Shown piece by piece: positions 5,093 through 60,488 of a DNA stretch of 64,000 bases. The translations under genes were made by a program, and so were the position numbers. The DNA comes from Patescibacteria group bacterium (GTDB lineage: Bacteria > Patescibacteriota > Patescibacteriia > XYB2-FULL-38-15). How positions within the stretch are numbered: position 1 is the stretch's first letter; every line of letters begins with the position of its first letter. Where the stretch lies: positions 837-64,836 of the forward strand of contig JBAZEY010000006.1 of assembly GCA_041653675.1 (NCBI GenBank). The letters run 5' to 3'. Under the pieces are notes generated by a model. It did no database searches. It was given only the letters and a program-made list of their open reading frames with translations, and was not told the origin of the DNA.

Positions 5093-6262
5093 TTACCGAT
5101 TTCCTTTCGCTCGATTGTGTGTCTTGCACAACATCTGACAGTTTTTGGCTGCTGTTTTGCCACCTTTGCTCCAAGCCGCGACATGGTCGGCATCCATCTC
5201 GTTCAAATTCCAAATCTTTTCCTTGTTGGCATCGTGTCCAACGGCACAAAGCGGGCAGTTTGATTTTTCTTTCTTTTCAGCCGCAGCGGTCTGTGTTGCA
5301 TACACAGTTTTCTTTGTCGCTTCATCAAAAATTCTGACTTCAAGTAATTTCGTATCAGTGGAATCACCAAGAATATACTCAAAAATTCCTCTACGATTTT
5401 TTACATACGGATCCGCATAAAGTTTATGAACTTCCGCCGACACTTTGGCAGGATTATACGCTTTCTTGTGATATGTTTCGTAAAGCCGTCCCCACGGAAG
5501 CCCGCACATTTCGCTTTCTACGTCAGTAAATACGCTAGATACCCAATCAATGACGGTGTTAAAATATTTTTTCAACTCATCAATATTTTTGTCTTTGCGA
5601 TGTTTGCTCATATAATCGCCAATATTGTCTTTGCTTACCCAATCAAGAGCACATTCCAAAAATTCCTGCCGGTTAGCGCTGCCGGATACATACGCGCTCC
5701 ATTTTTGGATATTGGCGTTTTGGCTATTGCTGAATTCCTCTTTACCGAGTGTCACAAATGGTCCGGAATAAACCGCATTGAGCAATTCCTGATTATTAAG
5801 CGGAACACCGGCAATATTTATTGTTTTAAACCATTCTTTTATCTCGCTTTCTTCACCTTTACATTCATAAATAGTTAGTGTTGTATTCAATATTTTAGAT
5901 TGCTTATTTTTTGCAAGACCTGAAAAATATTGCTCCATACCATTTTCGTCTTTGATGGCGAATTTGTCATTCACAAAACGTCCAACGCTAGTGATGCGCT
6001 GTTGCCCGTCCAAAACTTCCAGATTGTTTTCAGATACCTTATTAAAATAAATCAAACCAATCGGATACCCCTTGAGAATCGAATCAATAACAGCAACCTC
6101 TCTTTTTCCACCATCGGAGGCATAGATATAGTTACGCTGATATTCCGGCTGAATAGTGAGCTTGCCGGACAATCCGAATAGTCCCTTGCCTTCAAGTTCG
6201 TTATAGACAAACCCATCGCAAATATCTTTGACAGTAATGTTGATCTTTAAAGCTGTATTCAT
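5093..6262 (-). CDS. DUF262 (ParB/Srx-like, DGQQR motif) N-terminal domain fused to a canonical HNH endonuclease; GmrSD-like type IV restriction candidate
   Basis: N-terminal ...[12 protein letters not shown] is the DUF262 signature. The C-terminus CPLCAVGHD...[12 protein letters not shown]...[15 protein letters not shown] is a CxxC...DH...N...CxxH-N HNH motif. The start overlaps the Dam gene by 4 nt. Confidence 0.75.
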
Positions 6263-7110
6263 ATTGTTATTAAATCAAAATTTATATTTTTAAGTTTAGA
6301 ATCAAAAAACAAAATTTCTTTACCTTTTTTAACACAAAAAGCTGTATAAATTAAATTAAATTCAAAACTATTCTTTACAAATTTATATAAATTTTTGATT
6401 TTTGAAGTATTATCATATGAAACTATCCAGTGAATTGTTTTTATTTTTTTAATTTCTTGCGATACTTTTTCATGATCTTCACTACTGTAAGAATTTTTGT
6501 AAAGACTTGGGCCTTTTAAATAATATGGCGGGTCAAAATAAAAAATAGTTTGCTGATTTTTAGATTCATCTTTAATTTTTTCAATCAGCTCAATGGCGTC
6601 TAAATTGAATAATTGAATTTGCTTTTTAAATTTTGCTATTTCCCTTATTCTTTTAATTAACTCCTGTTTCTTAAAACGACAATCCATTTTATAATTTCCA
6701 TCTTGCTTAATTCCTCCTATCAACCCGCCATCAATAATTCCGGACATGTTAACTCTATTAAGGAAAAAAGTAGAAAAGCCGAGCTGGATTAAGGATGAAT
6801 ATTTTTTTGTTTTTTGAATTGCCTTTGCCTTTCTCCAAGTTTCAACATTTATTTCAACATCTTCAATCATCTTACACAATTTATTTGTATGGTTTAAAAC
6901 AGAATACCAGAAAGCATAAATAGAGCGATCGTAATCATTTATAGTAATACTATCTACTTTTCCTTCTAATAATAAATACAAAGCCACAGATGCGCCGCCA
7001 GCATATGGCTCTACATAATGACTATTAATATTATTATCAACACAAATTTGAGCAATAAATTTTGCCAGCTTATTTTTTCCGCCTGGATATCTTAACGGTG
7101 AGTAGAACAT
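6259..7110 (-). CDS. DNA N6-adenine methyltransferase, Dam/D12 class
   Basis: N-terminal RYPGGK SAM-binding motif ([11 protein letters not shown]) and catalytic DPPY (FYFDPPYY). Confidence 0.85.
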
Positions 7111-7112
7111 AT

Positions 7113-8393
7113 TTATTCTTTTTTAGTTTTAAAATAAGTTTCTAAAATATCTCCCGCAACATATGACATTTTCAACACGTCCTGTTTCGAAACACTTATA
7201 TTGCCGTGAGCATATTTTCCAAGCAGTGCCTCAAACTCAAACCTTTTGTTTAAAAAATCTGAAGTAATACTCAAATAGTTTACAACTTCTTTATCTTTGC
7301 ATTCTTTTTGAAATAATTTAATAAAACTCAAATAGGGATTCTCTTGATTTGCATTATCGGTATCTCCTTGACTTCTGTAATAAATTCTAGAAGCAACATC
7401 CAATATTAACCTCGTAGACATTCCTACAATTAACAAAATATTCTCATCATCCGTTCCTTTTTTATAAACTTTATCAACTGCCAAATACAAATCATTTACT
7501 GGACCCTGTTCTAATTGCAAAACTCTGCCAAAAAGAATATCTTTCTTCTTTGTTGCTGGAGTTTTTTGAGGTTTTATCAATTTTTCAGCTTGTTTTTTAC
7601 TAATTGATATTTCTTCAAAAACACTATTTTCTGGGTTCTTCAGTATTTCATCAATAGATTTATCTTTGTTAATTATTGTTTTTAGTTTTCCTCTGTTATT
7701 TCGAGTAGATATATCACCTTTTTGTAAAGCATCCTGTGTTGCCTCAAAAATTTTAATGAGCTGTCCATCTGAATATTTACTATAAAGTTTGCCTTCCTTC
7801 AGATCTATTCCGATATCTTTAAGATTTTTTTCATTTAAAACCTCTTCTTTCACAAATCTTTTGTTTAAAGTTTTGTTTCCTTTTAAAAAACCCGTTTGAT
7901 CATTAATGGACACAAAAATACTTTTTGGTTTATTTTTAAAATGTAACAAAAAGTAGTCTCTTTCGAGTTCTCCCCACGATCCATTATCAATATGTTTCCT
8001 TTCAATACTCGTAACAGCAGTATTTTCATCACAAACATTACACGGAAGAGTGGTTTGTTCTCTCAATAATTTTGGCTCAAGTTCTCTGAATAACTGCCCC
8101 ACATACTTGGAATACTTACTATCATCTTGTATTATTTTTAGCAAAGCAACTCTTCTGTTTCCATCATAAACTACATACTTATCATCTTTTTTGACGACTA
8201 TGGGTAACTCTGAATAATCGTAATATTCGCCCATTTTTTGTACTAACTTTTTTATATTCCATTTATTATCCGAGTCTTGGATAATACGATCAATGATTTC
8301 TTCATCGATTTTTTTAGCATCAATTGGATCTCTTGGGTTTTCCGTCCAGAGATGTAAATTTTTTATTGGGATGTTTAGAATTTCTTGTTTCAT
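7113..8393 (-). CDS. ParB-like nuclease-domain (ParB-N/sulfiredoxin fold) protein, function unknown
   Basis: N-terminal ...VYDGNRRVALLKI matches the ParB-N GxxR motif. The ~300-aa C-terminal region has no recognisable motif. It is tightly packed between two MTase genes. Confidence 0.6.
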   Translation of the reverse strand: MKQEILNIPIKNLHLWTENPRDPIDAKKIDEEIIDRIIQDSDNKWNIKKLVQKMGEYYDYSELPIVVKKDDKYVVYDGNRRVALLKIIQDDSKYSKYVGQLFRELEPKLLREQTTLPCNVCDENTAVTSIERKHIDNGSWGELERDYFLLHFKNKPKSIFVSINDQTGFLKGNKTLNKRFVKEEVLNEKNLKDIGIDLKEGKLYSKYSDGQLIKIFEATQDALQKGDISTRNNRGKLKTIINKDKSIDEILKNPENSVFEEISISKKQAEKLIKPQKTPATKKKDILFGRVLQLEQGPVNDLYLAVDKVYKKGTDDENILLIVGMSTRLILDVASRIYYRSQGDTDNANQENPYLSFIKLFQKECKDKEVVNYLSITSDFLNKRFEFEALLGKYAHGNISVSKQDVLKMSYVAGDILETYFKTKKE

Positions 8394-10202: not shown

Positions 10203-11435
10203 TCAATAATCCCTTAATTTTTCAATACCCTTGAACCCTTGCACTTTTTCCAAAGCTTTTGCTTCAATTTGCCGAATGCGTTCGCGGGTTACGCCAAATT
10301 CCTCGCCAACTTCTTCCAAAGTATGCGAAACGCCGTCGGAAAGGCCAAAACGCATTTCCAAAATTTTCTGTTCGCGAGGCAGGAGGTCCTTAATTGCTTC
10401 TTTAACATATTCCCGCAAAAGCTGCAATGCCGCCGCGCGATCCGGAGAAACGTTTTTGAAATCTTCTATAAAATCTTCGAGCACGCTATCTTCATCTTCA
10501 TCGCCGACCGAAGTATCAAGCGAAACCGTGTCTTGGGAAATCTGAATTAAATTTCTAATTTTTTCCACATCCTCGCCCATCTCCGAAGCAATCTCTTCGG
10601 GCAAGGGTTCGCGCCCCAAATCCTGAATCAATTGCCTCGCCACTTGCTGATAACGGTTAATAGTTTCCACCATATGCACCGGAATTCTGATAGTGCGAGA
10701 TTGATCCGCAAGGGCACGCGTCACGGCCTGACGAATCCACCAAGTTGCGTAAGTTGAAAATTTATATCCTTTACTCGGATCAAATTTTTCCACGGCGCGC
10801 ATCAAACCAATATTCCCCTCTTGAATCAAATCTGCCAAAGATAAATTTTTTCCCACGAATTTTTTTGCAATAGAAACAACAAGGCGCAAATTGGCAACCA
10901 TTAATCTCTGCGACGCTTCCTGGTCTCCCTGATCCTTGCGGCGGGCCAAAGCCATTTCTTCTTCAGTCGTTAAAAGCGGCACTTTTCCGATTTCACGAAG
11001 ATACATCTGAATGGAATCGGTAGAAATATCGCCCAAGTCCAATCGCTTCTTTTCTTTACTGACGCCAATATCGGCCAAAAGTTTTTTTCTCTCTTCAGTG
11101 CGCCCCAAAATATCAGATTTAACTTCCACCACAGAAATTCCGGCCTCATCAATTTTATCTAAAAATTCTTCGTATTTTTTTATGTAATTTTCCAAATCGG
11201 CGAAAGTGAAAAGGATTTCCGAATCAGTCAAAAAACCTCTCATGCGGCCCTTGTCCAAGAGAGTTTTTATCGTTTCATCGCTTGGCGGAAGAATTTTTGG
11301 TGCGACGACTCTGGCGACTTTTTTCGCCTTAATTTTCTTTCCACCTCGTTTGGCTATCTTTTTCTTCCCGCCCGATTTTTTAATTTTTTTCACGCCGCCC
11401 TTCTTCTTCGGCCGACGCACTTTTTTAGTTTTCAT
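10203..11435 (-). CDS. rpoD: RNA polymerase sigma-70 factor RpoD
   Basis: Regions 2-4 are present ([34 protein letters not shown] region 4.2). The N-terminal 40 aa are Lys-rich. Confidence 0.9.
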
Positions 11436-13331: not shown

Positions 13332-14396
13332 TTAATTTATTTCTATTTCTCTGCCACAATAAGGGCATTTAAATGGCGACCTATAATTATAACAAGTAGT
13401 TGCATACGTTACTCTTGATGAATAAAAACGATTAAGAGAATCCTTATTATATCCATATTCAGAAAGTTCTTTTTCTATATTTTTACCACAAAATGGACAA
13501 AATTTTCTTTCCGCTTCTATTACATTTGAAATACGGAACGTCCCGAAATCATTGTTTAATGAAGAAGAAAATGGCAAATTGATGCCCGATGAAACAGACG
13601 CTAAAGCGGGCGGCTCTATGCCACAATTAATTGTTCTATAAGTTCTATCAAATTTTTTCTTTTGTTCTTCTGTATAATTTTCCTTAAATTCCTTATCCAG
13701 CATATCAAGCGGGTTTTTGTACCCACTTATTTTTATATTTTCAACATTAGTCTTTTTTATAGATGTTTTTACTCCCTCATTTAATAATTTTTTTCCACAA
13801 TCTTCAAAATAATCTTTATCATCTACGCATAAAATACATTTTTGTTTCTTATCAATTTTGCTATCTTCCAAAAATTTTAAAAAAGATTCAAATGCAATAC
13901 AATCGAGGTCTTTCACATAAGCCGTTTTTCTGGGGTTCTCCGTCCATGGTGGTTCCTTTAACGAAGATCTCACCATGCCCCGAATTAAGATATCACCAGT
14001 TAATGGAATCTTTTTTGTATTTTTATGACTCATAATCCGCTTAATAATATCCTCGTTGGATCGCTCAATGTCTTCTACGGATTTTACGTTGTCTTTTATG
14101 CTTTTCGTAATTTTTTCATGTATTTTTTTGAACTGGTCTTTCTCCTTTGAAGACCCAAAAATTTTAGATGAATCTATGCAATTAATATTATCCTTTATTT
14201 CTTTAAATATTTTTTTATGTTCATCGAATATTTCTTTTTCAATTACTTCTGGAACAACAAGAACCATCTTACCGCTATCAACCTTATTTTCAATTTTTTT
14301 CAAAACATCTATATCTAAATCATCTATCTGTTCCAAGGCACAACTAATAAAAATATTTGTATCAATAAAGACTATTTGGGGTAGATTTCTTCTCAT
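13332..14396 (-). CDS. PIN-like domain protein with C-terminal zinc ribbon, function unknown
   Basis: N-terminus IVFIDTNIFISCAL resembles the first PIN acidic motif. The C-terminus has CPFCG...(x18)...CPYCG. Confidence 0.5.
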   Translation of the reverse strand: MRRNLPQIVFIDTNIFISCALEQIDDLDIDVLKKIENKVDSGKMVLVVPEVIEKEIFDEHKKIFKEIKDNINCIDSSKIFGSSKEKDQFKKIHEKITKSIKDNVKSVEDIERSNEDIIKRIMSHKNTKKIPLTGDILIRGMVRSSLKEPPWTENPRKTAYVKDLDCIAFESFLKFLEDSKIDKKQKCILCVDDKDYFEDCGKKLLNEGVKTSIKKTNVENIKISGYKNPLDMLDKEFKENYTEEQKKKFDRTYRTINCGIEPPALASVSSGINLPFSSSLNNDFGTFRISNVIEAERKFCPFCGKNIEKELSEYGYNKDSLNRFYSSRVTYATTCYNYRSPFKCPYCGREIEIN

Positions 14397-16178: not shown

Positions 16179-16886
16179 ATGCGACAAGAAGAATTACAAG
16201 AAATTAAAAAAAATCCGGCGTTAATCGCCAAATATATTGACCATACCGAAGTCAGCCCGAATTCCACTGCCGCCGACATTAAAAAACTTTGCGCCGAAGC
16301 GAAAAAATACGGATTTTATTTGGCTATGGTTTTGCCTTATTACGCGCCGCTCGCGAAAAAATTATTGCGCGGCACAAAAATAAAAATCGGTGTGGTAATG
16401 GGTTTTCCTTTTGGCGCGCAATGTACCGAGGCGAAACTCGCGGAAATGAAAAAGGCATTTCCTTTTGCTGATGAATTTGATTTTGTTATAAACCGCCAAG
16501 CCTTGAAAAATAAAGATTATGGATTTATTCTGAAAGAGCTAAAAACTTTGGCCCGGGCGAAACGCGGAAAAATTATGAAAGTTATCATTGAATCACCGGA
16601 ACTCACGAACACAGAAATTTATAAAGCCTCACAGTTAATTTTGGCCTCCGGCGCCGATTTTGTAAAAACCGCAGTGGGTTTACGCGGCGGCGCGAAAATT
16701 TCCGACGTTAAAATAATGAAAAAAGTTGTGGGTGATAAAATAAAAATTAAAGCTTCCGGCGGAATTAAAAATTTCAAAACCGCTCTCGCGTTTCTCGCCG
16801 CCGGAGCCTCGCGGCTAGGAACTTCGCACGGCGTGGAAATCGTCAAAGGCGGATCGAGCAGTAAGAAAAGTTATTTTCACGAATGA
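16179..16886 (+). CDS. deoC: deoxyribose-phosphate aldolase-like class I aldolase
   Basis: GADFVKTAVG...IKASGGI matches DeoC Schiff-base lysine context. Confidence 0.65.
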   Translation: MRQEELQEIKKNPALIAKYIDHTEVSPNSTAADIKKLCAEAKKYGFYLAMVLPYYAPLAKKLLRGTKIKIGVVMGFPFGAQCTEAKLAEMKKAFPFADEFDFVINRQALKNKDYGFILKELKTLARAKRGKIMKVIIESPELTNTEIYKASQLILASGADFVKTAVGLRGGAKISDVKIMKKVVGDKIKIKASGGIKNFKTALAFLAAGASRLGTSHGVEIVKGGSSSKKSYFHE

Positions 16887-17521
16887 AAACATTAACTATA
16901 AAAATAAATCCACGGAATCCGGAAAAAGAAAAAATAGAAATAGCCGCCCAAATTTTAAAAGAGGGCGGTTTAGTTGTTTTTCCCACGGATACGGTTTACG
17001 GCCTAGCCGCTGATGCAAAAAATCCGCGGGCGGTTAAAAAAATATTTAAAGTCAAAAAAAGGCCGCTCTCTAATCCCCTGCCCATTTTAATCGCGAGAAA
17101 AACTGATCTCAGAAAATACACGAAAGAGACATCAGCGAAAATAAAAAGATTAACTGATAAGTTCTGGCCAGGTCCATTGACGCTTATCTTACTAAAGAAA
17201 AAAAATATTTCAAATATTGTGACTGCCGGCCTTCCCCGCGTAGGTGTGCGCGTACCAGATAATGCCGTGGCCCTCGCATTAATCCAGGCATTCGGCCGAC
17301 CGCTCGCCACGACCTCCGCAAACATCGCAGGTAAACCGAGCCCGGCCACCTCACGCGGCGTCAAAAAATATCTGAATAATAAAATAGATTTGATCCTGGA
17401 CGGTGGAAAAACCAAACTCGGCCAAGAATCCACTGTTTTAGATTGTAGCGCTTCGCCGCCAACTTTTCTCCGCTCCGGCGCGATTCCGACAAAAAAACTG
17501 AAAAAACTTATTTCAAATTAA
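16883..17521 (+). CDS. tsaC: L-threonylcarbamoyladenylate synthase (YrdC/Sua5 family)
   Basis: GGLVVFPTDTVYGLAADA...NPLPILIA is the YrdC signature. Confidence 0.85.
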   Translation: MKTLTIKINPRNPEKEKIEIAAQILKEGGLVVFPTDTVYGLAADAKNPRAVKKIFKVKKRPLSNPLPILIARKTDLRKYTKETSAKIKRLTDKFWPGPLTLILLKKKNISNIVTAGLPRVGVRVPDNAVALALIQAFGRPLATTSANIAGKPSPATSRGVKKYLNNKIDLILDGGKTKLGQESTVLDCSASPPTFLRSGAIPTKKLKKLISN

Positions 17522-17524
17522 AAC

Positions 17525-17553
17525 GGGGTTGCAAGAAAGATTCTTACAACCCC
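17525..17553. terminator. bidirectional hairpin shared by convergent tsaC and the GC-island gene
   Basis: GGGGTTGCAAGAAAGATTCTTACAACCCC forms a 7+5-bp stem. Confidence 0.55.
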
Positions 17554-17561
17554 AGACGACC

Positions 17562-17885
17562 TCAATCCCATGGGCCTCCTTTCAGCATATCCTCGGTGCG
17601 GCCGCAGCAAGAGCAACGAGCAAGATACCAGTTCACGACGTGTTCTTTCTGCCGTCCGCAGATCTTGCATACATGTGTTACCACTTCCTGCATCCGCTGC
17701 ATCGCCCTCCCGCAGCATCGAGTGAGCGTGTAGTTCTTCTTGAGTCCCCAAAGTCTTGGGGCGGGCTCAATCCGTTTCTCGCCGATCTGCTCCCAGTCCG
17801 GCTCATGTCCCACACACTTGCTGTGAACGCACGAACCGTTGTGGACATGCAGCTCGCAAGGAACTCCCTGGTTGGCATTGGCCAT
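17562..17885 (-). CDS. Cys-rich hypothetical protein (107 aa; CxxxC, CCGR, CKICGR, CSCCGR motifs) in GC-rich island a
   Basis: Strong SD AAAGGAGGG lies 7 nt before the ATG. GC content is far above that of neighbouring genes. Confidence 0.55.
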   Translation of the reverse strand: MANANQGVPCELHVHNGSCVHSKCVGHEPDWEQIGEKRIEPAPRLWGLKKNYTLTRCCGRAMQRMQEVVTHVCKICGRQKEHVVNWYLARCSCCGRTEDMLKGGPWD

Positions 17886-17929
17886 CGCAATCCCTCCTTT
17901 TCGCCTCCCATTTTTGGGTGCTGATTAAT

Positions 17930-17958
17930 AGTGTATACAAAAATCATAAAAAGTCAAG
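17930..17958 (-). promoter_or_regulatory. putative sigma70 promoter (TTGACT -35) for the Cys-rich gene
   Basis: TTGACT lies 60 nt upstream of the start. The -10 is ambiguous (TATACA or TACACT). Confidence 0.3.
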
Positions 17959-18009
17959 CCCACAGCGGAATAACAAAAAACGGACCGAATGGCCCGTTTT
18001 ATATACAAC

Positions 18010-18038
18010 CTTGACAAAATCCTTCAAACTAAATAACA
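18010..18038 (+). promoter_or_regulatory. sigma70 promoter TTGACA-N17-TAACAT for the RHH gene
   Basis: Consensus -35 with 17-nt spacing, followed by SD GAAGGAGG and a GTG start. Confidence 0.45.
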
Positions 18039-18060
18039 TAGCTTTAGAAGGAGGAATAAC

Positions 18061-18315
18061 GTGGCGAAATCACGGAAACCATCAGTCGAACTGAAGAACC
18101 ACATCATCTCTGTGCGCATACTGGGCTCCCATCTGGAGGCGCTGGAAGCCCTGGCCAGAGTCGACGACACAACGTTGGGAGAGCAAATCCGAAAAGCGCT
18201 CAACCGATACGTGGCGAAACGCATCCGCAACAAAAACTTCCAGAAACAACTCCTGGCCTACAAGAGAAGGATGAAGGCACTCCTCAACGTGCTGAGGAAG
18301 AAACCCGGCGACTAG
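18061..18315 (+). CDS. ribbon-helix-helix (CopG/Arc-like) DNA-binding protein, GTG start
   Basis: N-terminal KNHIISVRILGSHLEALEALARV fits a beta-strand plus helix RHH pattern. It sits in GC-rich island a. Confidence 0.5.
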   Translation: MAKSRKPSVELKNHIISVRILGSHLEALEALARVDDTTLGEQIRKALNRYVAKRIRNKNFQKQLLAYKRRMKALLNVLRKKPGD

Positions 18316-18347
18316 GAGGTCGCCGCCGCCATATTCAACCGGGTTTG

Positions 18348-18375
18348 CCAGTTTACCAAAAACTGGCGTTTTTTT
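18348..18375. terminator. intrinsic terminator (CCAGTTTACCAAAAACTGG + T7)
   Basis: Hairpin followed by TTTTTTT. It serves the RHH gene and the convergent membrane-protein gene. Confidence 0.55.
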
Positions 18376-18688
18376 ATTTCACCAAAAGATTGATTACAAA
18401 CGCCACCAAAAGAATCACAAATAAATTCGCTACGGTAAAAAGAAGCATTTTCACGGCTTCTTTTTTAGCGTTATCAAACCAAAGATAAACCGGCCGGCCA
18501 AAAACTAAAAGTCCGCAGACGAGGGCGGAAAAAACGAAGAGCAAGAGAAACGTGACCGGTCCCCAATAATTTTCCATTTGACCAAAAATTTTTTCGCCGT
18601 TCGTCATGACCAAAACCACAAGCATTACGTAAGCGAAAACTCCGACCGCGTTCGCCGCGGACCACAACCAAATTTTCTGATTTTTCAT
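18374..18688 (-). CDS. hypothetical membrane protein (3 TM)
   Basis: Hydrophobic 104-aa ORF in the host-GC range. Confidence 0.4.
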   Translation of the reverse strand: MKNQKIWLWSAANAVGVFAYVMLVVLVMTNGEKIFGQMENYWGPVTFLLLFVFSALVCGLLVFGRPVYLWFDNAKKEAVKMLLFTVANLFVILLVAFVINLLVK

Positions 18689-41100: not shown

Positions 41101-41143
41101 CAGCCAAACTCCGACGAACCGGAATTGACCAATGCGGGCATCA

Positions 41144-41602
41144 TCACGAAGCTACGCGATGCAGTGCCTCCGCAAGAGTTGCGGGACGGTCTTCGCCCTC
41201 CCACTCGTGGATAACGAACTCACGCAGCCACTTGCCTCCGAAGTCGGCCGTATAATCATACGGTCCGCCGCCGAAGCGAGGACCTCGCTTGTATCCAAGG
41301 ATGCGGTCGTAGACCGCCTGTCCTGCCGCCTCCCCCTTCCGGCAAAACTCATCGAACTTCGCTTGATCCGCAGAAACTTGGATCAACGCCGCCTTGTGCT
41401 CATCTTCACCGCGCCCATCCAAGTCGTACCAACAGAGAAGAATGTGCTGACCCGGAGCGACCGTCACCCGGAAGTAACAGTCGCCATGCGACTTCCGCGT
41501 TGGACATTCGACCAGCACCTTCGCCCCGTCGGTTTCCAGACGCCCGTAGTAACCGGAGGGCGAATCGTACTCGGAAAAGTAGAAAGAACAAACCCCAGCC
41601 AT
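41144..41602 (-). CDS. hypothetical protein (152 aa) in GC-rich island b
   Basis: SD AAAGGGAGGG lies before the ATG. GC is high, and no motif is recognised. Confidence 0.5.
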   Translation of the reverse strand: MAGVCSFYFSEYDSPSGYYGRLETDGAKVLVECPTRKSHGDCYFRVTVAPGQHILLCWYDLDGRGEDEHKAALIQVSADQAKFDEFCRKGEAAGQAVYDRILGYKRGPRFGGGPYDYTADFGGKWLREFVIHEWEGEDRPATLAEALHRVAS

Positions 41603-41771
41603 TTTACCACTCCCTCCCTTTATTCAACTCGCTCAATTCTTCATCAAGCGAGTGTAAATTTTCACTCTTGGCTCTTACCCGCCGGCGCACCATGCGACCG
41701 ACAAGCATTTGCCAATGCTTTATATTATTACCCTTTTACCTTTTTGTCAATAAGATGTATAATTTCAAATT

Positions 41772-42542
41772 ATGGATAAATCTTGTCAAAAAATAGAATC
41801 TGACGATCCGCTGGCCGAGAAGAAATATTCGCCGGTTAAAGGGATTGTCCGCAAATATTCTGACCGGGTGATCTTTTGTCCGACCTACGCCTGCCCCTCG
41901 CACTGCGATTTTTGTTTTAGAAAAAATTTGGTTGACGGAAAAAACGGCGAGCTTAGTGAAAGCGAAATGTCCGCGGCAATTGATTATATTAAAAAAAATA
42001 AAACCATCCGCGAAGTGATTTTGTCCGGCGGCGATCCATTATTTTTGAGTGAAAAAACTTTGTCGGATATTTTAAAAAAACTCCGCGTGATTCCGCATAT
42101 CAAACTTTTGCGCGTCCACACCCGGATTCCGGTTACGTTTCCAGGACGTGTCACAAAAAAACTTGTGGCCATTTTTAAAAACGCCGCGCCGATTTGGATT
42201 GTCGTTCACATCAATCATCCAAGAGAAATAACGCCGCAATTTAAAAAAGCTGTCACGGAATTAAGAATAGTAGGCATTCCCCTTCTCTCCCAATCGGTTT
42301 TACTCCGCAACGTAAACGACAATGCGGAAACTTTAAAAAAATTATTTTACGGACTCGTGGAACTTGGCGTGAAGCCGTATTATTTACATCAATGCGATCC
42401 GGCGCGCGGCACAAAAAAATATTGGGTTAACATAAAAAAAGGTAAAAAAATAATGCGCCAATTGCGCAAAGAAATTTCCGGAATTTGTCTTCCGACTTAT
42501 GTCCAAGACTCGCCGCACCGCGGAAAAAATCCCTTATTTTAA
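41772..42542 (+). CDS. KamA-family radical SAM protein (lysine 2,3-aminomutase-like, short form)
   Basis: CPSHCDFCFR matches CxxxCxxC radical-SAM cluster motif. It is preceded by a TGtATAAT extended -10. Confidence 0.6.
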   Translation: MDKSCQKIESDDPLAEKKYSPVKGIVRKYSDRVIFCPTYACPSHCDFCFRKNLVDGKNGELSESEMSAAIDYIKKNKTIREVILSGGDPLFLSEKTLSDILKKLRVIPHIKLLRVHTRIPVTFPGRVTKKLVAIFKNAAPIWIVVHINHPREITPQFKKAVTELRIVGIPLLSQSVLLRNVNDNAETLKKLFYGLVELGVKPYYLHQCDPARGTKKYWVNIKKGKKIMRQLRKEISGICLPTYVQDSPHRGKNPLF

Positions 42543-46374: not shown

Positions 46375-46464
46375 CCATAAACTTTACCCGCCTTTCTGGC
46401 GGGTTTTTGAAATAAAAAAAGCGAGATCCAGTGATCTCGCAGACTCGTGTTGCCGGAACATGGA

Positions 46465-47094
46465 CTAGCTTGTCCGAGCGGCCTTAGGCGGCGGTTCATG
46501 CGCGTAGCAGTTGGTGCCGCAGAAAGGACACAGTGTAGCTTCTTCGGACGGCTGATCCTTCTGACCCCCGGACCTGGTCTCGTACGCCACGTAGCCGCAC
46601 TCGCAGACCAAGGTGTACTTGTCCAGGAAATCCTGCCCGAGACCGACGTCTTCGGAGTAGCACTCCGCTTCCTCTCCGCACTTCGGACATTTGGGCTTGG
46701 GCTTGGACTTCAACTCCACCTTCTTTTCTTCGGCCATGGTTTCCTCCTTCGTCTGCTCCTCGCAAGGCAAGAGGCCAGCCCGCCCCGCCATCGCAAGGAA
46801 ATTTATCATCTCCTGACAAACAGAACCGCAATATGGTCCAACTCGGCCGTTCTCATCGTAAGCGCCGAGTTCTTCACGAAGACGATGCACATCCTGCTGT
46901 GCGGCGTCCAAGAAGGCCGCCTCTCTCGCCGGCTCCCGCCGCGCCTCGCACATGTACACGTCAAGGCGTGCAATTGAGATGTAAAGGTACAGTGCCACAA
47001 CGGCGTCAATGTTTGGTACCTGGATCGTCTCTCTAACCTTGGTGCCGCAACTTAGAAATGCAGCCGCCAAGGCAACCATGAGGATTTTTTTCAT
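46465..47094 (-). CDS. Cys-rich putative lipoprotein (209 aa) with a Y-C-G-x-V-C-Q-E-M domain, GC island c
   Basis: Signal peptide plus lipobox-like FLSC. SD GAAGGAGG and a TTGACT-N17-TATATA promoter are present. Cys pairs CPKCG/CECG/CPFCG resemble a zinc ribbon. Confidence 0.6.
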   Translation of the reverse strand: MKKILMVALAAAFLSCGTKVRETIQVPNIDAVVALYLYISIARLDVYMCEARREPAREAAFLDAAQQDVHRLREELGAYDENGRVGPYCGSVCQEMINFLAMAGRAGLLPCEEQTKEETMAEEKKVELKSKPKPKCPKCGEEAECYSEDVGLGQDFLDKYTLVCECGYVAYETRSGGQKDQPSEEATLCPFCGTNCYAHEPPPKAARTS

Positions 47095-47110
47095 CTCTTT
47101 CCTCCTTCAA

Positions 47111-47139
47111 TATATAATCACTCTGAACAAAAAAGTCAA
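47111..47139 (-). promoter_or_regulatory. sigma70 promoter TTGACT-N17-TATATA for the 46465..47094 gene
   Basis: Both hexamers match consensus and the SD-ATG lies 20 nt downstream. Confidence 0.5.
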
Positions 47140-47140
47140 G

Positions 47141-47205
47141 AATAAAAAAGGGCTTCTGCGATAAGTATTGCAACGCTTGTGCAACACTAAACCGCAAAAG
47201 CCCAA
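47141..47205 (-). terminator. terminator hairpin (GGGCTTTTGCG...CGCAGAAGCCC + T6) after the 47210..47731 gene
   Basis: Compound hairpin followed by TTTTTTATT on the minus strand. Confidence 0.4.
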
Positions 47206-47209
47206 CGAC

Positions 47210-47731
47210 TCACGGCCCGCAAAAGAGGCCGTTTGCCCTCGCCTCCAAAAGAAACTTCGTCATCTCCTGGCAGACCGGACCGCAGTAGCAATCGGTCCGG
47301 CCGCGTGCGCGGTAGACGTCGAATTCCTGGCCCAGGCGGTCCACATCGCGCTCGGCGAAGTTACGAATCGCCTGACGGGCGCTCTCCTCCGCCATCGCCG
47401 CCTCGCAGATGCCGACTTCCATACGCTGAGTTTCCAGACTGAGATACTGCCCATGTGTTCCGCCGAGCGTCGGCTCGCAGGCGACTACCTCGACCGTGAC
47501 CGGATCGGTCGGCTCTGGCAGACTTCCTCCGCAGCCGACCAAAATGAGCAGAAGAATCCCGGCCAACGTGCTGGATCCGCCGCCGAAGGCCCAAGCATGT
47601 TCGCTCGGGTCCCAAACGCGCCACGGAACCTTGAGGTAATCGTTGTCGTTCAACAGCCCGCCGATCACCGCCGCGCCGCAGAGCAAAAAGAGAATTCCCA
47701 AGAAAACCGCCGTACTTCCACAGGATTCCAT
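47210..47731 (-). CDS. Cys-rich membrane-anchored/secreted protein, paralogue of 46465..47094 (shares the ~70-aa CEA...YCGxVCQEM...GL.C domain)
   Basis: Start reassigned to MESCGST, which is preceded by SD GAAGGAGGAGG. The conserved block ...VDRLGQEFDVYRARGRTDCYCGPVCQEMTKFLLEA... aligns with ...VHRLREELGAYDENGRVGPYCGSVCQEMINFLAMA... Confidence 0.6.
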   Translation of the reverse strand: MESCGSTAVFLGILFLLCGAAVIGGLLNDNDYLKVPWRVWDPSEHAWAFGGGSSTLAGILLLILVGCGGSLPEPTDPVTVEVVACEPTLGGTHGQYLSLETQRMEVGICEAAMAEESARQAIRNFAERDVDRLGQEFDVYRARGRTDCYCGPVCQEMTKFLLEARANGLFCGP

Positions 47732-47858
47732 TGTCCTCCTCCTTCTTGCCTCAATCGCCAATTTTAGGCGAATATAAAATTATCCAACATTTTTTGCTTT
47801 TTGTCAAGATTGATGATAAAATGAAACTACTTTTAAAAATATTTTAATTTAAAAACCC

Positions 47859-55452: not shown

Positions 55453-55659
55453 TTCAAACATTTTTTGAGACCGCCACTTTTGTGATGTTCTCGAAAAATG
55501 TGGGGAACGAATGATGTGTAGTCACTCGTTCCCCGTGTGTTCGGTTTGTCTAGGCCGAAACCTGAGGGCTACTGCCTCCCTTGGACTCACCACTACGCAG
55601 GTGACGCGTTCCATCGCGGGCGGCGAGCGTTGACCTTGCGGTCAAGCGATAGCGGCTAT

Positions 55660-55839
55660 CTATCTCACGCCTACCTCCTCCTCTTCACCGAGCAGGAACT
55701 GGACGAACCGGTCCAGCTGCGGTTCATACCGCTGCATGAATCGGACCGTCGCCCGCGGTGCGATCCGGTCGGCGATTCTGACCACGATGACCGCGGAGAC
55801 AAGAATCGCCGTGCTGGCGACCTCCCGTACCACCTTCAC
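55660..55839 (-). CDS. small hydrophobic protein (59 aa, GTG start) in GC island d
   Basis: SD GAAGGGAGGAAG lies 4 nt before the GTG. The sequence has one TM-like segment (STAILVSAVIVV). Confidence 0.35.
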   Translation of the reverse strand: MKVVREVASTAILVSAVIVVRIADRIAPRATVRFMQRYEPQLDRFVQFLLGEEEEVGVR

Positions 55840-56077
55840 AATCTTCCTCCCTTCTAGCCGCCAAGGACCAGCAAAGAGGCGACAAAAGCGAAGAACAAAC
55901 CGAGCCAGAACACGTGGCCTTCTCCGGCTCCCTCCATCTCGCCGACCACCATAAGCCGGCGACGCTCGAACTTTTTGACTCCTTTCATGATGACGTAGAC
56001 GTCCGCGCCTACCACCAAAATTCCCAGAATCACCCTGGCCGTGGACAAATTTTCTTGCCTCCTCTTGGTCGGATGAA

Positions 56078-56227
56078 CTAGGAGCAATCCTCGCCGTCGT
56101 CGCCGTCGCAGGCGTCGACCACATCATCGCATCCCGCGTCCGCCTCGCACGGCGGAGAGAGATCGATGAACGTGTTGCTGCAACCGAGCGCGAACATCAC
56201 GAACAGCACCATGAACATCTTTTTCAT
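56078..56227 (-). CDS. truncated paralogue (49 aa) of the Cys/Asp-rich lipoproteins
   Basis: MKKMFMVLFVMFALGCSNTFIDLSPPCEADAGCDD... has the same signal, lipobox and first Cys-motif as the two large paralogues. It is preceded by the third copy of the leader repeat. Confidence 0.4.
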   Translation of the reverse strand: MKKMFMVLFVMFALGCSNTFIDLSPPCEADAGCDDVVDACDGDDGEDCS

Positions 56228-56371
56228 CTCGTTTCTTTCCCTTCTTTTGCCTCCGCCAAAGGCGGAAAAATTTATGAAATGAACTTTCCTCTCTTCGAGT
56301 TCACCTGTTTACTGTTCGAGCGGAGCGTTAGCGAAGTCGAGAACTTCTCGACTCACTTCGTTCGCTCGAAG

Positions 56372-56545
56372 AATAACAGATGCCCTCGAAAGAAGGCGGA
56401 ACACATTTTTTAGGTGGGTTCCGCTAAGCTCGTATTTTTTCTTGCTGTCACCTTGCGGTGATTTAGGAAAATTTACGAGCCACCGTCCGAAGGACTCGGA
56501 CGATTTCCGGCATACTTTTGGAAGCCGGCTTATTTTGGAAGGTGC
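56372..56545 (-). repeat. leader repeat copy 3 (distal ~175 bp, near-identical)
   Basis: Matches 57727-57900 and 59469-59640 almost base for base. Confidence 0.85.
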
Positions 56546-56547
56546 TA

Positions 56548-57627
56548 CTACGGGCAGTCCTCGTCGACCAGTCCGTCGCAGTTGTCGTCGAGGCCGTTGC
56601 CACACGTGTCGATGGAACCCGGAATGGACCAGATGGTTCCGGGTGGCGACGAATCGCAGGCCAGCTGGAACATCTCACCAGGCGCGTTGCAGGTGATGAC
56701 GCCGAACTCGGTGCAAAGACCTTCGTCGGAGAAGATGACGCAGGTACGACCGAGATCCTCTCGGTAGTCCTCGTCCGTTTCCCCATCGCAGTCGTTGTCG
56801 ATCTCGTCGCAGAGTTCCTGGGCGTCCGGATTGATAGCCGCGTCGCTATCGTCGCAGTCTTCCGCATTGGTAACGTACCCAGGAGGCATATCCTCGGTTG
56901 GACAGTGTGACGAGGTAGCGGTGGGGGTGTCGAATCCGAAGCCGTCGCCGTCTCGATCAAAGTAGATCGGAAAGCGATCGATGGCATCCGCGTCCGTCTC
57001 GCCGTCGCAGTCGTTGTCGAGGCCGTCGCAGATCTCGCCAACGCCGGGATGGACAGCCGGATTGTGATCGTCGCAGTCGTAGTACTCACCCGGCGAAGAA
57101 CCACAGAGCTGATGACCATCGACGTCATCATCACGTCCGACAAGCAAACAGTGATTCATCACACAACGGGAGATGATGCACTCACTGTCGCGAAAACCGC
57201 AGTCATCGGAAGTGACACACTCTGGCGGCGCGCAGGCGGGATCATCGGACGGAACGTGGCGACAGATGCCGCCAACCTCGCAGAGGTCGACCGTGCAGTC
57301 GTCGCCGTCGTCGCAGTCCGCACTCGTCTCACATTCGGTAGTCGGGAGACACACGCACATGTCGCCGGAACAAACGCCGGTTGACATGCCTTCTGCCTGG
57401 CACTCGAAAACGCAATCGGTCGGCACGCAGTCGGACGGCGGCTCGCAGGCCGGATTGTCGGAGGGAACCATGACGCAGGTGCGGTCAATGCCGCAGATGT
57501 CCACCGTGCAGGGGTCGCCGTCGGCGCAGTCCGCGTCCGAAACGCACTCCTGACTCAGATCGAGGAACGTGTTGTTGCAACCGATCGCGAACAGAACCAC
57601 GGACAGAACCATCAACGTATTCTTCAT
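56548..57627 (-). CDS. secreted Cys/Asp-rich lipoprotein with MopE/TSP3-like DxDxDGxxDC metal(Ca)-binding repeats
   Basis: Start reassigned to MKNTLMVLSVVLFAIGC (SD AAGGAAGGAAAG). It has repeats CDGLDNDCDGETD, CDEIDNDCDGETDED, CGNGLDDNCDGLVDEDC and ~14% Cys. The ORF-track N-terminus (MFRLLSRV...) is the upstream leader read in frame. Confidence 0.65.
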   Translation of the reverse strand: MKNTLMVLSVVLFAIGCNNTFLDLSQECVSDADCADGDPCTVDICGIDRTCVMVPSDNPACEPPSDCVPTDCVFECQAEGMSTGVCSGDMCVCLPTTECETSADCDDGDDCTVDLCEVGGICRHVPSDDPACAPPECVTSDDCGFRDSECIISRCVMNHCLLVGRDDDVDGHQLCGSSPGEYYDCDDHNPAVHPGVGEICDGLDNDCDGETDADAIDRFPIYFDRDGDGFGFDTPTATSSHCPTEDMPPGYVTNAEDCDDSDAAINPDAQELCDEIDNDCDGETDEDYREDLGRTCVIFSDEGLCTEFGVITCNAPGEMFQLACDSSPPGTIWSIPGSIDTCGNGLDDNCDGLVDEDCP

Positions 57628-57900
57628 CTTCTTCTCTCTTTCCTTCCTTGTTGTAAAGAACTTTGTCCCGGACACGCGAAACATCGCGGCCGAGAAACTT
57701 TCCTCTCTTCGAATTTGCCACGCAACGCGTGGTACCCTCGAAAGAAGGCGGAACACATTTTTTAGGTGGGTTCCGCTAAGCTCGTATTTTTTCTTGCTGT
57801 CACCTTGCGGTGATTTAGGAAAATTTACGAGCCACCGTCCGAAGGACTCGGACGATTTCCGGCATACTTTTGGAAGCCGGCTTGTTTTTGGAAGGAACTA
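57565..57900 (-). repeat. leader repeat copy 1 (~335 bp, identical to 59307..59640), comprising the first codons plus 5' UTR/promoter
   Basis: An exact duplicate covering the signal-peptide codons, SD and ~270 bp upstream with several hairpins (TCACC-GCAA-GGTGA, CCACGC-GTT-GCGTGG, TCCGA-GTCCT-TCGGA). Confidence 0.85.
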
Positions 57901-59370
57901 CTCGGCGATCACGAGCTTCGTGGAGGCGATCATGGGGAGACCCGACAGGAAACAGATCTCATGGCCGACGTCAATGTCGTCCGCGCTCATGATCCCGAAC
58001 TGGAAGATCTCTCCCAATTCGGGATGGTCGGCTCCGAACCCGCTCAGAGAAAGCTCGACGTACGAGATTTCGACTTCCGGCGGCACCGCGATGTTTTCGA
58101 AGACAATCTGATCGCCGGGACTCCCTTCTCCACTGGGTACGATCTTCTCCTTCCGGATCGAAACCCATTCGCCCGAGAACGGAACCCTCCCATGCAGTGT
58201 CAGCCACGCATCCAAGCTGGCATCACCCTGGAGAACCGTGAAGGCAATCCGAGGGATCACGCCTGTTTCAATCTGAACCATGAAGGCGAACTTCGCCACC
58301 GAAACCTCGTAAGTGCTGCTGTCCATCGGTGCGCACCAAGTGTCCTCGGCACACTCGCTCGGTACCACCTGTCCGTACGTAACCCAGTTGACCCACGGAA
58401 ACACGGGCGGACCACTGATGAAGAGCGAGCTGCAGAAATCCGCGGGGTAACGTGGTTCAGTGACGGTTGAAGAACAGGAATGGAAAGGATGGCTGGTGCA
58501 CGCGGGAGCTGGTGGGCAAACGGAATCTTCGTCCGTCTCGCCGTCGCAGTCGTCGTCCGCGCTGTTGCAGACCTCGGTAGTCGGGATGCAGGCAGGCCCA
58601 CAGTCCTCGTCGACCGCCGTGTCGCAATTGTCATCTCGACCGTTGCCGCAGACCTCGTCGGCGCCGGGATGAACATCCGGATCGTGATCGTCGCAATCGT
58701 AGCGTTCGCCTTCCGGCAGACCGCCGCAGAGCGACCGACCGTCGCCATCGTCATCACGTTCGAAAGCGAAGCACGAATTCGCCAAGCAGCGGAAGACGAG
58801 ACACTCGCCGTCGAAGCGAGCGCAATCGGCATCCGTGCGGCACTCGGGTGGTGTCTCACAGGCCGGATGACCGGCGCAACCAGAGTCGGCACAGTCGGCA
58901 CGACCGTCGCGATCGTTGTCTGCGCCATCCGTACACTCGCCGGGCTCGTCACCCTCGTAGTCGTCGACTTCCACATCCGCATCAGCGTCCGCATCGGCAT
59001 CGACGTCCGCGTCAGCATCCGAAGGCGTCTCGCAGGCCGGATGACCGGCGCAACCAGAGTCGGCGCAGTCGAACTGACCGTCACGGTCATTGTCCACGCC
59101 ATCCGTGCATTCTCCGGGCTCGTCGCCCTCGTAGTCGTCGGTACTTGCATCCGCGTCGGCGTCAGCATCGGCATCCCGGTCGTCCACCGGCTCGCAAGCC
59201 GGGTTGTCGGAGGGAACCATGACGCAGGTGCGGTCAATGCCGCAGATGTCCACCGTGCAGGGGTCGCCGTCGGCGCAATCCGTGTCCGACTGGCACTCGC
59301 TGTCGAGGAACGTGTTGTTGCAACCGATCGCGAACAGAACCACGGACAGAACCATCAACGTATTCTTCAT
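57898..59370 (-). CDS. secreted Cys/Asp-rich lipoprotein paralogue (~490 aa) with duplicated GECTDGxDNDRDGxxDCADSGCAGHPACETP modules and a C-terminal ~170-aa beta-rich domain
   Basis: Same signal, lipobox and first 25 residues as 56548..57627. It has poly-(DA) linkers, an internal exact module duplication and SD AAGGAAGGAAAG. Confidence 0.65.
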   Translation of the reverse strand: MKNTLMVLSVVLFAIGCNNTFLDSECQSDTDCADGDPCTVDICGIDRTCVMVPSDNPACEPVDDRDADADADADASTDDYEGDEPGECTDGVDNDRDGQFDCADSGCAGHPACETPSDADADVDADADADADVEVDDYEGDEPGECTDGADNDRDGRADCADSGCAGHPACETPPECRTDADCARFDGECLVFRCLANSCFAFERDDDGDGRSLCGGLPEGERYDCDDHDPDVHPGADEVCGNGRDDNCDTAVDEDCGPACIPTTEVCNSADDDCDGETDEDSVCPPAPACTSHPFHSCSSTVTEPRYPADFCSSLFISGPPVFPWVNWVTYGQVVPSECAEDTWCAPMDSSTYEVSVAKFAFMVQIETGVIPRIAFTVLQGDASLDAWLTLHGRVPFSGEWVSIRKEKIVPSGEGSPGDQIVFENIAVPPEVEISYVELSLSGFGADHPELGEIFQFGIMSADDIDVGHEICFLSGLPMIASTKLVIAE

Positions 59371-59640
59371 CTTCTTCTCTCTTTCCTTCCTTGTTGTAAA
59401 GAACTTTGTCCCGGACACGCGAAACATCGCGGCCGAGAAACTTTCCTCTCTTCGAATTTGCCACGCAACGCGTGGTACCCTCGAAAGAAGGCGGAACACA
59501 TTTTTTAGGTGGGTTCCGCTAAGCTCGTATTTTTTCTTGCTGTCACCTTGCGGTGATTTAGGAAAATTTACGAGCCACCGTCCGAAGGACTCGGACGATT
59601 TCCGGCATACTTTTGGAAGCCGGCTTGTTTTTGGAAGGGA
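59307..59640 (-). repeat. leader repeat copy 2
   Basis: Identical to 57565-57900. Confidence 0.85.
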
Positions 59641-60123
59641 CTAGAGCGTGATGACGCCGTCGTGACCGTACATCATGACCATCGCCATTGCGCCGTTCTT
59701 CATCACGAGGCCTCCGAGGCCTCGCACCAGCTCCCGCGCTTCCCTTCCGGTTGCGTCATCGGGAGTGGTGGTGCAAAGAGCGACATCGTCGTAGGGATAG
59801 CCGAGCTCGTCGCGGAGCCGCTGCCGCGCTTCGTCCTCCGAGGAGGACGAAGCGATGATGTGTCTCGCGGCGACTTCGATCTCGGCGTCGGTCATGTCGG
59901 GGTAGGACTTGCACTGCACCACGGCGGCTCCGACCAAACCGATGAGCTTGGTGTGCTGGGCCGCACGAATCACGGAGTTGGCGAGCGCCAAGGCCTTGCA
60001 AGGGTTGCGTTCACCCACGAAGGACATGGAGGGGTTGTGACCCCTCGAACGCTGCCATGCAGCGTGCGCCACGACCTGCTCGGCAGAGCCTTCGGGCCAG
60101 CCGAGAACACCAGACTTCTGCAT
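59641..60123 (-). CDS. hypothetical protein (160 aa) in GC island d
   Basis: SD GAAGGGAAGGAAGAG lies before the ATG. GC is high, and no motif is recognised with confidence. Confidence 0.5.
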   Translation of the reverse strand: MQKSGVLGWPEGSAEQVVAHAAWQRSRGHNPSMSFVGERNPCKALALANSVIRAAQHTKLIGLVGAAVVQCKSYPDMTDAEIEVAARHIIASSSSEDEARQRLRDELGYPYDDVALCTTTPDDATGREARELVRGLGGLVMKNGAMAMVMMYGHDGVITL

Positions 60124-60488
60124 CTCTTCCTTCCCTTCTTTCGTCCCGCGATTCTGCGGGAAGTCAACGAACTCTTGTTCCCTCTCCGCACCATGCGGTT
60201 TAGGAAATCTTTCGGACAGAAACTTGCGCTTCTGCCCTGGCTTGAATCGGCGAATCTTCGTCGCCTCAAGTCATTTGGACAAACAAAAACGGGCGGAGAG
60301 AATCCGCCCGAAATTAAATTATTTGTACAAATAATTTAGGGTGGTTTTCCCGCCACTTTGGCGAGTCTCTCTCAAACCGACCTATTTCATTGTCAACAAA
60401 TTAGTATACCATAAAAACAACAATCTGTCAAGAGCCTTTGACAGATTTTAGATGATATTTTGGCTAATTTTAGATAAAATATATTATG

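Follow-up and report, generated by a model that had tools for sequence, protein, structure and literature searches.

Patescibacteria carry hundreds of islands and single-gene transfers, which occupy up to 13% of genome length and are mostly exchanged among Patescibacteria themselves (PMC12455944, mSystems 2025). We analyzed a locus of this general kind in a 64,000-nt stretch of a Patescibacteria genome (assembly GCA_041653675.1, contig JBAZEY010000006.1, positions 837 to 64,836), hereafter the window, in whose own numbering positions are given. Between the host gene tsaC and a host gene for a 104-aa membrane protein stand two small divergent genes, one for a 107-aa Cys-rich protein and one for an 84-aa protein resembling ribbon-helix-helix (RHH) repressors. 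We take both to be ordinary acquired accessory genes that, like the small islands already described, represent compositionally atypical accessory DNA scattered in streamlined genomes. In contrast to those islands, we find here single genes of ~0.4 kb, each with its own promoter, Shine-Dalgarno (SD) site, and terminator, placed in the gap that separates a stop codon from an existing terminator, with no integrase, tRNA, or repeats at the locus.

A single small gene placed precisely between conserved neighbors, with its own expression signals, also recalls phage homing-endonuclease genes and integron cassettes, and a further likeness is the conserved 3' hairpin that travels with the Cys-rich gene. 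Unlike these systems, the locus has no HNH, GIY-YIG, or LAGLIDADG motif, integrase, or attC site, and mobility is deduced solely from differing genomic contexts. The Cys-rich protein shares with C4 zinc ribbons (uS14, eL43, Rpo12/RpoP, TFIIB-type) the C73-x2-C76 and C91-x2-C94 knuckles flanking a beta-hairpin, but its family has seven further putative ligands (C19, H21, C24, H27, C/H57, C58, and C93), an H-x-P-x-W-E motif, and a core of ~85 aa that matches no Pfam or NCBIfam model. As in RHH repressors (CopG, Arc, Mnt, aCcr1; RHH_1, PF01402), residues 13 to 53 of the 84-aa protein read as strand, helix, turn, helix, and this segment aligns end to end with RHH_1 and aCcr1 as well as with PHROG models of the CopG-like and Arc-like types; the protein is small and has its own promoter. 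It departs from them in scoring below curated thresholds, in having no detectable sequence relative, and in an extra basic C-terminal helix of 30 residues.

Horizontal transfer and small islands were known from Patescibacteria before (PMC12455944), and current views are not overturned here. New are the anatomy of the insertion slot, the contrast in SD usage with the host, and an unnamed family of beta-ribbon proteins with multiple predicted zinc sites. The locus offers a worked example of single-gene uptake by streamlined Patescibacteria, in which complete expression cassettes occupy a slot with lineage-specific cargo. It also brings to light a sharply bounded protein family, with 11 conserved Cys/His and a basic beta-ribbon, that has no neighbor in Pfam or NCBIfam or by structure, and the strong SD sites on imported genes in an SD-poor genome constitute a natural test of how ribosomes handle SD-led mRNAs.

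Two proposed cassettes flank an ancestral terminator

The reading that we favor, with a probability of roughly 55%, is that the 0.85-kb segment is not one island but two independent monocistronic acquired cassettes, each lodged between a host stop codon and an ancestral host terminator designated T_anc. Cassette 1 would extend from ~17522 to 17976 on the minus strand and comprise a promoter, a 5' untranslated region (UTR), a strong SD site, the 107-aa open reading frame (ORF), and a terminator, T2. Cassette 2 would run from ~18001 to 18373 on the plus strand, with a promoter, an SD site, the 84-aa RHH ORF, and a terminator, T3. An earlier note on this DNA had described one GC-rich island bounded by the tsaC terminator and the next host terminator. 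The idea of one island finds no support, given the survival of T_anc at 17977 to 18000 and the cargo that relatives carry on either side of it.

T_anc is a bidirectional terminator of the tsaC/membrane-gene gap (-17.9 kcal/mol, z = -4.4), with A and T runs on both sides. Its pattern, AAACGNNC-N(4-12)-GNNCGTTT, has a single match in the window against 0.18 expected, and among 133 loci it occurs just at this intergenic site, in the relatives L006, L007, L024, and L133 and in four copies of the window locus; each locus has one hairpin of this type. The 16-mer CCGAATGGCCCGTTTT of T_anc is identical in the window and in L024, where it lies directly 3' of tsaC. We read T_anc as the ancestral host terminator, now stranded between two inserted genes. 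Relative to it, the cargo stands on the left in L007, on the right in L024, and on both sides in the window, with one gene each. As T_anc lies inside the presumed island with genes on either side, two separate insertions into stop-codon/terminator gaps are the simplest reading.

The two outer hairpins belong to the inserted genes. T2 (17524 to 17554, minus strand), a 14-bp hairpin found in the terminator scan (-20.7 kcal/mol, z = -5.6), carries a U-tract only on the minus strand, and we therefore assign it to the Cys-rich gene, as part of that gene's cassette, and not to tsaC. T3 (18346 to 18368, plus strand), from the same scan, has a modest stem and, on the plus strand, a T7 run as U-tract, which makes it the terminator of the RHH gene. 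The borders proposed in the earlier note thus fit the cargo instead of the host. Neither hairpin has a U-tract oriented for host transcription, so that host transcripts of tsaC and of the ABC operon on the other side would continue, antisense to the cassettes, as far as T_anc.

The T2 stem, GGGGTTGYAAGA / TCTTGCAACCCC, is also present 3' of the Cys-rich family genes in L133 and L132, giving the consensus GGGGTTG(C/T)AAGA / TCTTGCAACCCC for the three sites, and a related hairpin lies 3' of the family member in L135. Neither the rest of the window nor 130 other loci contain the motif. The surroundings differ, with prs downstream of the family gene in L132 and a GTPase gene as its neighbor in L135, and the proteins of these two are just 37 to 45% identical to the window protein, so that the hairpin is far better conserved than the coding sequence. 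The promoter, TTGACTTTTT...TTTT.GTATA, is alike in the window, L133, L132, and L030, and nearly every family gene has an SD site, whereas most of its neighbors have none. Shared across contexts in this way, promoter, SD site, ORF, and hairpin behave as one portable unit. Cassette 1 would accordingly move as a whole, because a similar promoter and SD site accompany other members, and a T2-type hairpin the closest ones, in unrelated surroundings. A bolder version, which we consider a long shot, has the gene as a new kind of minimal self-contained mobile cassette, built of promoter, SD site, 100-aa multi-zinc protein, and conserved hairpin, that spreads among SD-less Patescibacteria through stop-codon/terminator gaps, with the GGGGTTGCAAGA/TCTTGCAACCCC hairpin recognized by its own protein for mobility or autoregulation.

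The tsaC site is a hot spot in relatives

The left border of the insert is tsaC (Sua5/YciO/YrdC; 16883 to 17521, plus strand; PF01300, E = 5e-62), and the insert starts immediately after its stop codon. On the right stands the gene for the 104-aa membrane protein (18374 to 18688, minus strand), the last gene of a MacB/FtsX-type ABC operon. The closest relatives of tsaC come from Patescibacteria metagenome-assembled genomes, including a Falkowbacteria bin, at 68 to 71% identity. The order phosphorylase, (deoC,) tsaC, gap, 104-aa membrane gene is kept in four relatives (L005, L006, L007, and L024), in which the membrane protein is 69 to 86% identical; tsaC is syntenic in these and in L133. Beyond the membrane gene, the genes for FtsX, FtsX, ABC, and membrane fusion protein follow in L006 and L007, and no matches are seen there in L005 and L024.

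What fills the gap varies. In L006 the site is empty, with ~50 nt and one bidirectional terminator between tsaC and the membrane gene. L007 has a gene for a 229-aa membrane protein (6659 to 7348), left of T_anc; L024 one for a 233-aa membrane protein (6690 to 7391), right of T_anc; and L005 one for a 272-aa charged protein (6691 to 7509). The three are different and mutually unrelated, and by this comparison we regard the gap as a hot spot. L133 is a closer relative, with tsaC, deoC, and phosphorylase 83%, 91%, and 95% identical, and its tsaC site, too, is occupied by an orthologue of the Cys-rich gene (65% identical); the L133 contig ends before the position where the RHH gene would stand. 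With the Cys-rich gene in L133 and in none of the other four, the acquisition is older than the split between the window lineage and L133 and younger than the split from the other four. Both cassettes would have entered before the former split. One of these relatives, L006, is OZ246416.1, an 886-kb chromosome labeled "uncultured Gammaproteobacteria bacterium"; its gene order agrees fully with that of the Patescibacteria window, proteins being 71 to 89% identical, the genome is of the size seen in CPR (candidate phyla radiation) bacteria, and the label is probably wrong.

An abrupt compositional change over so short a segment could also arise from a chimeric assembly or from spurious ORFs. The same junctions are present in four independent assemblies from different studies (ENA ERZ27247358, JGI 3300014205, Logan SRR6484325, and Logan SRR18595300), and the four copies are 99.6 to 100% identical, with the same neighbors and no single-nucleotide polymorphism within the island. 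As these assemblies share the locus, mis-assembly is excluded and the locus is genuine, which settles a concern voiced in the earlier note. An orthologous locus is moreover present in L133. For the Cys-rich ORF, support comes from its 126 homologous clusters, from purifying selection, and from a structure model of good confidence, and for the 84-aa ORF from codon-position GC periodicity and RHH profile matches; the chance that either artifact accounts for the locus is negligible.

Composition and SD usage set both genes apart from the host

The GC content is 0.568 in the Cys-rich gene and 0.541 in the RHH gene, against a window mean of 0.431. GC at third codon positions (GC3) is 0.657 and 0.718, respectively, compared with 0.21 to 0.50 for 49 host ORFs, and the codon-usage log-likelihood gives z values of -3.8 and -7.8, outside the host range. 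In the RHH gene the values for the three codon positions (GC1/GC2/GC3 = 0.565/0.341/0.718) form a pattern that supports coding. The earlier description of a segment far richer in GC than its surroundings is thus borne out at the codon level, in GC3 and in codon usage, but not for the block as a whole: at a GC of 0.519 the 811-nt island lies at the 91st percentile of 811-nt windows, and stretches at 46.3 to 47.8 kb and 55.4 to 60.4 kb are richer still.

Translation signals show a sharper contrast. Among 52 ORFs examined, a GGAGG SD is found in two of two island genes and in none of 50 host ORFs; just three host ORFs have a 4-mer SD core, and host upstream regions are A/T-rich. In this genome the canonical SD is therefore itself a foreign trait. 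The Cys-rich gene has AAGGAGG at 17891 to 17897 (plus-strand numbering; the site is on the minus strand) within its 5' UTR, and the RHH gene has the same site at 18048 to 18054 on the plus strand, 6 nt before the GTG; the distance from SD to start is 6 to 7 nt at both. The earlier note was right about these sites, as about the two ORFs, the Cys-rich one with an ATG start at 17562 to 17885 on the minus strand and the RHH-like one with a GTG start at 18061 to 18315 on the plus strand.

Horizontal acquisition of both genes is supported by the foreign GC3, codon usage, and SD usage, together with the empty site in L006 and the other cargo in L005, L007, and L024. The cassettes may have come from a more GC-rich, SD-using donor pool, the host being essentially without SD sites.

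The Cys-rich gene belongs to a solitary, widely placed family

An exhaustive HMMER search returned 126 representative homologues of the 107-aa protein at E < 1e-3, 46 of them at E < 1e-10, most being ~100 aa long. The core, of ~85 residues, follows the motif C19-x-H21-x2-C24-x2-H27-x-P-x-W-E ... (C/H)57-C58-G-x2-M ... C73-x2-C76-G-R ... C91-x-C93-C94-G and holds 11 conserved Cys/His columns in 80 aligned members. C73 and C91 show no variation, and conservation of C76 and C94 reaches at least 97%, with a 14-residue spacing that is fixed in most members. CCG and CxxC lie 16 residues apart, counted from their first residues, in 104 members; the distance from CxxC to CxCC is 13 to 14 residues in 74. 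The four Cys clusters that had been noted from the single sequence are present, but the first, CELHVHNGSC, mixes the nonconserved C10, H13, and H15 with the conserved C19-x-H21-x2-C24-x2-H27. HUH (H13-V-H15) and HNH readings of the N terminus were discarded, as their residues are not conserved in the family.

At position 57, Cys is replaced by His in 15 of the 80 members, an exchange typical of metal-binding residues. Run with the family alignment, AlphaFold predicts an all-beta fold with confidence (predicted local distance difference test score [pLDDT], 84.6) with strands at 60 to 73 and 79 to 90, and two CxxC knuckles flank the beta-hairpin in the layout of a C4 zinc ribbon. The 11 conserved Cys/His and the exchange at position 57 point to zinc binding, and we picture an elongated beta-ribbon that may be held by two or three zinc ions, the putative ligand sets being C19/H21/C24/H27, C/H57/C58/C93, and the ribbon C73/C76/C91/C94. 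The C-terminal half is uniformly basic, with a mean net charge of +6.1 and a positive value in 80 of 80 aligned members, and from motif, charge, and predicted model this half probably binds nucleic acid. Compared with the L133 orthologue, dN/dS is 0.52 (dS = 0.44), against 0.13 for tsaC and 0.05 for deoC, and all putative ligands are kept; by these measures we take the gene to be real but fast evolving.

Searches outside the family return little. No Pfam, NCBIfam, PADLOC, or PHROG family fits the protein, and no Pfam family is common to more than 2 of 80 members, with sporadic Pfam ribbon matches in a few; Pfam scans of longer, fused members reveal no informative extra domain. Profile matches in the PDB are to generic ribbons (uS14, eL43, and Rpo12; E = 0.002 to 0.1), the best of them, at 0.002, covering the ribbon part only. 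Word-indexed searches with either island protein returned the query alone, and a profile search with the 80 members returned seven proteins. The degenerate DNA pattern CCG-x13-CxxC-x14-CxCC has no match in viral contigs; in a metagenome collection it marks 97 stretches, and none of 80 returned loci is a family member by hidden Markov model. There are no relatives of the island genes in 50,697 phage records, 72,556 plasmids, or IMG/VR, and no paralogue of either gene elsewhere in the window.

In ten other contexts the family gene is solo, a monocistronic insert with no recurrent neighbor. It stands between thyA and folA in L030, between two NUDIX genes in L130, beside a radical SAM gene in L031, after an M48 peptidase gene in L032, before a gene for a 132-aa unknown protein in L131 (with RmuC two genes further on), before prs in L132, next to the GTPase gene in L135, and at the tsaC site, as in the window, in L133; L134 is also among the family contexts, its neighbors not seen. 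In none of the ten does an RHH gene lie beside it, the L133 contig ending before that position. The family seems to circulate among ultra-small bacteria.

Composition within the family is divided. Four members are at host GC, and five (window, L133, L131, L132, and L135) are GC-enriched. Homologues at host GC had been named as evidence against recent acquisition, and the four members speak for that view, while the five, which include the closest relatives, are GC3-rich in AT-rich hosts (L131, 0.83; L132, 0.69; L135, 0.49 and above its host). The L133 orthologue has a GC3 of ~0.66 to 0.69, against 0.46 for L133 tsaC. One might therefore hold that the genes are native, that gene-specific selection, for mRNA stability or expression, raised the GC of an old Patescibacteria family, and that the relatives lost them. 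The retention of this GC3 in L133 despite a dS of 0.44 would agree with that, as would the high or raised GC3 of the L131, L132, and L135 members, the presence of other members at host GC, and the apparent confinement of the family to similar small AT-rich genomes. We nevertheless consider this unlikely. Insertion is the simpler explanation of the empty site in L006 and of the different cargo in three relatives, the RHH gene is biased in the same way yet has no family, the same GC3 and codon signature recurs in other accessory islands of the window, and the SD sites are foreign to the host style of initiation.

Several features of individual members were seen in passing. A start of Met-Asp-His is found in 22 of 126 members and M-x-H in 32 of 126, the N-terminal tail being otherwise variable; this start resembles an amino-terminal, ATCUN-like Cu/Ni-binding tripeptide, which the window protein, starting MAN, does not have. 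The member P0011 was called too short, its true start being MDH. In L030, the 377 nt that separate the family gene from folA (10283 to 10658) contain no convincing ORF and may hold a noncoding element. In L131 (1414 to 2215 and 4845 to 5468), the family gene (GC3, 0.83) adjoins the gene for the 132-aa unknown protein (GC3, 0.78), and a third GC3-rich gene 3 kb away (0.67) has a GGAGG SD; GC3-rich, SD-bearing accessory genes thus recur in these genomes.

The RHH-like gene and the case for a functional pair

The 84-aa protein is probably an orphan RHH repressor. Its residue pattern, IISVRI / SHLEALEALA / TLGEQIRKALNRYV, reads as strand, helix, helix, and RHH-type models align to residues 4 to 75, mostly 13 to 62. 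The match to RHH_1 (E = 0.018) covers model positions 2 to 39 of 39, and weak concordant matches are found to DUF6290 (E = 0.12), phrog_876 (E = 2.5e-4), the CopG-like phrog_7325, the Arc-like phrog_6506, and aCcr1 (E = 0.013). No homologue besides itself appears in 5.8 billion clusters, and no relative was found in phages, plasmids, or the 135 loci examined. By analogy with the general behavior of RHH proteins, it would dimerize and repress its own promoter, and it may also act on the neighboring promoter across the spacer.

The spacer between the ORFs is 175 nt long and AT-rich (GC, 0.38). On the minus strand, the Cys-rich gene has the promoter TTGACT-16-TACACT (17957 to 17930), conserved in L133 and similar in L132 and L030, followed by a 5' UTR (17886 to 17929) that is conserved in L133. 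On the plus strand, a promoter-like site of the RHH gene, TTGACA-17-TAACAT (18011 to 18039), matches the consensus at 10 of 12 positions, and its TTGACA box is still present where the L133 contig ends. Near-consensus boxes, as claimed in the earlier note, are thus present, and the minus-strand promoter is conserved in the orthologue and further family members; the number of sites found by the promoter scan (2, against 1.1 +/- 1.0 in shuffles) is not significant in itself. The 5' UTR of the Cys-rich gene contains a weak mini-hairpin, CCCAAAAATGGG (z = -0.7, not significant). Mini-hairpins shared by the 5' UTRs of some family members were considered as a regulatory element and set aside, being thermodynamically not significant. 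Rfam has nothing relevant in the region.

Alternatively, the two genes could have arrived together as one acquired module of a regulator and a zinc-binding effector, with the RHH protein acting through the shared spacer to repress the Cys-rich gene. Their divergent layout, with both promoters in the 175-bp spacer, is that of a classic repressor and target; in their foreign composition and in SD usage the two resemble each other; L133 seems to keep the RHH -35 box, so both were probably in the common ancestor; and the spacer is 78% conserved, above the synonymous sites of flanking genes. Against this, the spacer holds a host terminator orthologous to that of L006, L007, and L024, which is not predicted for a single imported block. 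In addition, the Cys-rich gene is alone in the ten other contexts (with the limit already given for L133), the 135 loci contain no homologue of the RHH gene, and no operator-like repeat stands out. We consider a joint arrival rather doubtful.

A more specific pairing, an unconventional toxin-antitoxin system with the RHH protein as antitoxin and the zinc ribbon as toxin, is highly improbable. RHH folds are common in type II antitoxins, the weak match to DUF6290 is to an RHH-like family, and both genes are small and on acquired DNA. However, the genes are divergent, with a bidirectional terminator between them and a promoter and terminator each, and so form no operon, and Pfam, NCBIfam, PADLOC, and PHROGs yield no toxin, antitoxin, or defense match. 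The putative toxin stands alone in ten other contexts, where an unneutralized toxin should not be tolerated, and no conserved co-occurrence of the two genes is seen across genomes, the L133 contig again ending too early. The functional pair of the earlier note, whether regulator and effector or toxin and antitoxin, consequently finds no support in the divergent arrangement around T_anc, the absence of such matches, and the lack of an RHH neighbor elsewhere.

Two independent cassettes, each in its own stop-codon/terminator gap, remain our preferred account, and several points weigh against it or against the functions that we attach to it. The two genes are alike in composition and were probably both present in the ancestor of the window lineage and L133, and one event that remodeled the surroundings of the terminator is formally conceivable. 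No integrase, transposase or other mobility gene, tRNA target, direct or flanking repeat, or target-site duplication was found within or beside the region, the nearest tRNAs being at 10.1 and 25.4 kb. With four members at host GC, the Cys-rich family may be of Patescibacteria origin rather than an import. Zinc and nucleic-acid binding are predicted from motif, charge, and a modeled structure, for which Foldseek finds no similar structure (E of at least 1.6 against the PDB and at least 0.2 against the viral models of BFVD). The RHH assignment is below the Pfam cutoff (15.5 versus 20.5 bits), the single-sequence AlphaFold monomer is all-helical with low confidence (pLDDT, 71), and the spacer has no convincing operator repeat, only short repeats at chance level. 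The N-terminal strand of RHH proteins forms only in the dimer.

An exact 11-mer, ACGTGGCGAAA, occurs twice at the RHH gene, at 18059 to 18069, over the start codon, and at 18209 to 18219, inside the gene; by a rough estimate, chance alone would give ~0.14 such repeats in 1.1 kb.

Other compositional outliers in the window

Three further stretches of the window, at 41132 to 41779, 46447 to 47767, and 55537 to 60339, are GC-rich, with GC3 values of 0.55 to 0.80 and codon-usage z values of -3.9 to -7.2, which suggests that these are accessory as well. The second includes a lipoprotein-like ORF (46465 to 47094, minus strand) that also has the SD AAGGAGG. In the third, paralogous MopE-type putative copper-binding repeat proteins are encoded at 56548 to 57756 and 57898 to 59499, both on the minus strand, with identical 5' regions and lipoprotein-like signal peptides. 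Outliers of the opposite kind are three unusually AT-rich ORFs at 6259 to 8393 and 13332 to 14396 (GC, 0.27 to 0.30 versus 0.43 for the window; GC3, 0.21 to 0.24), one of which has a PIN_12 domain.

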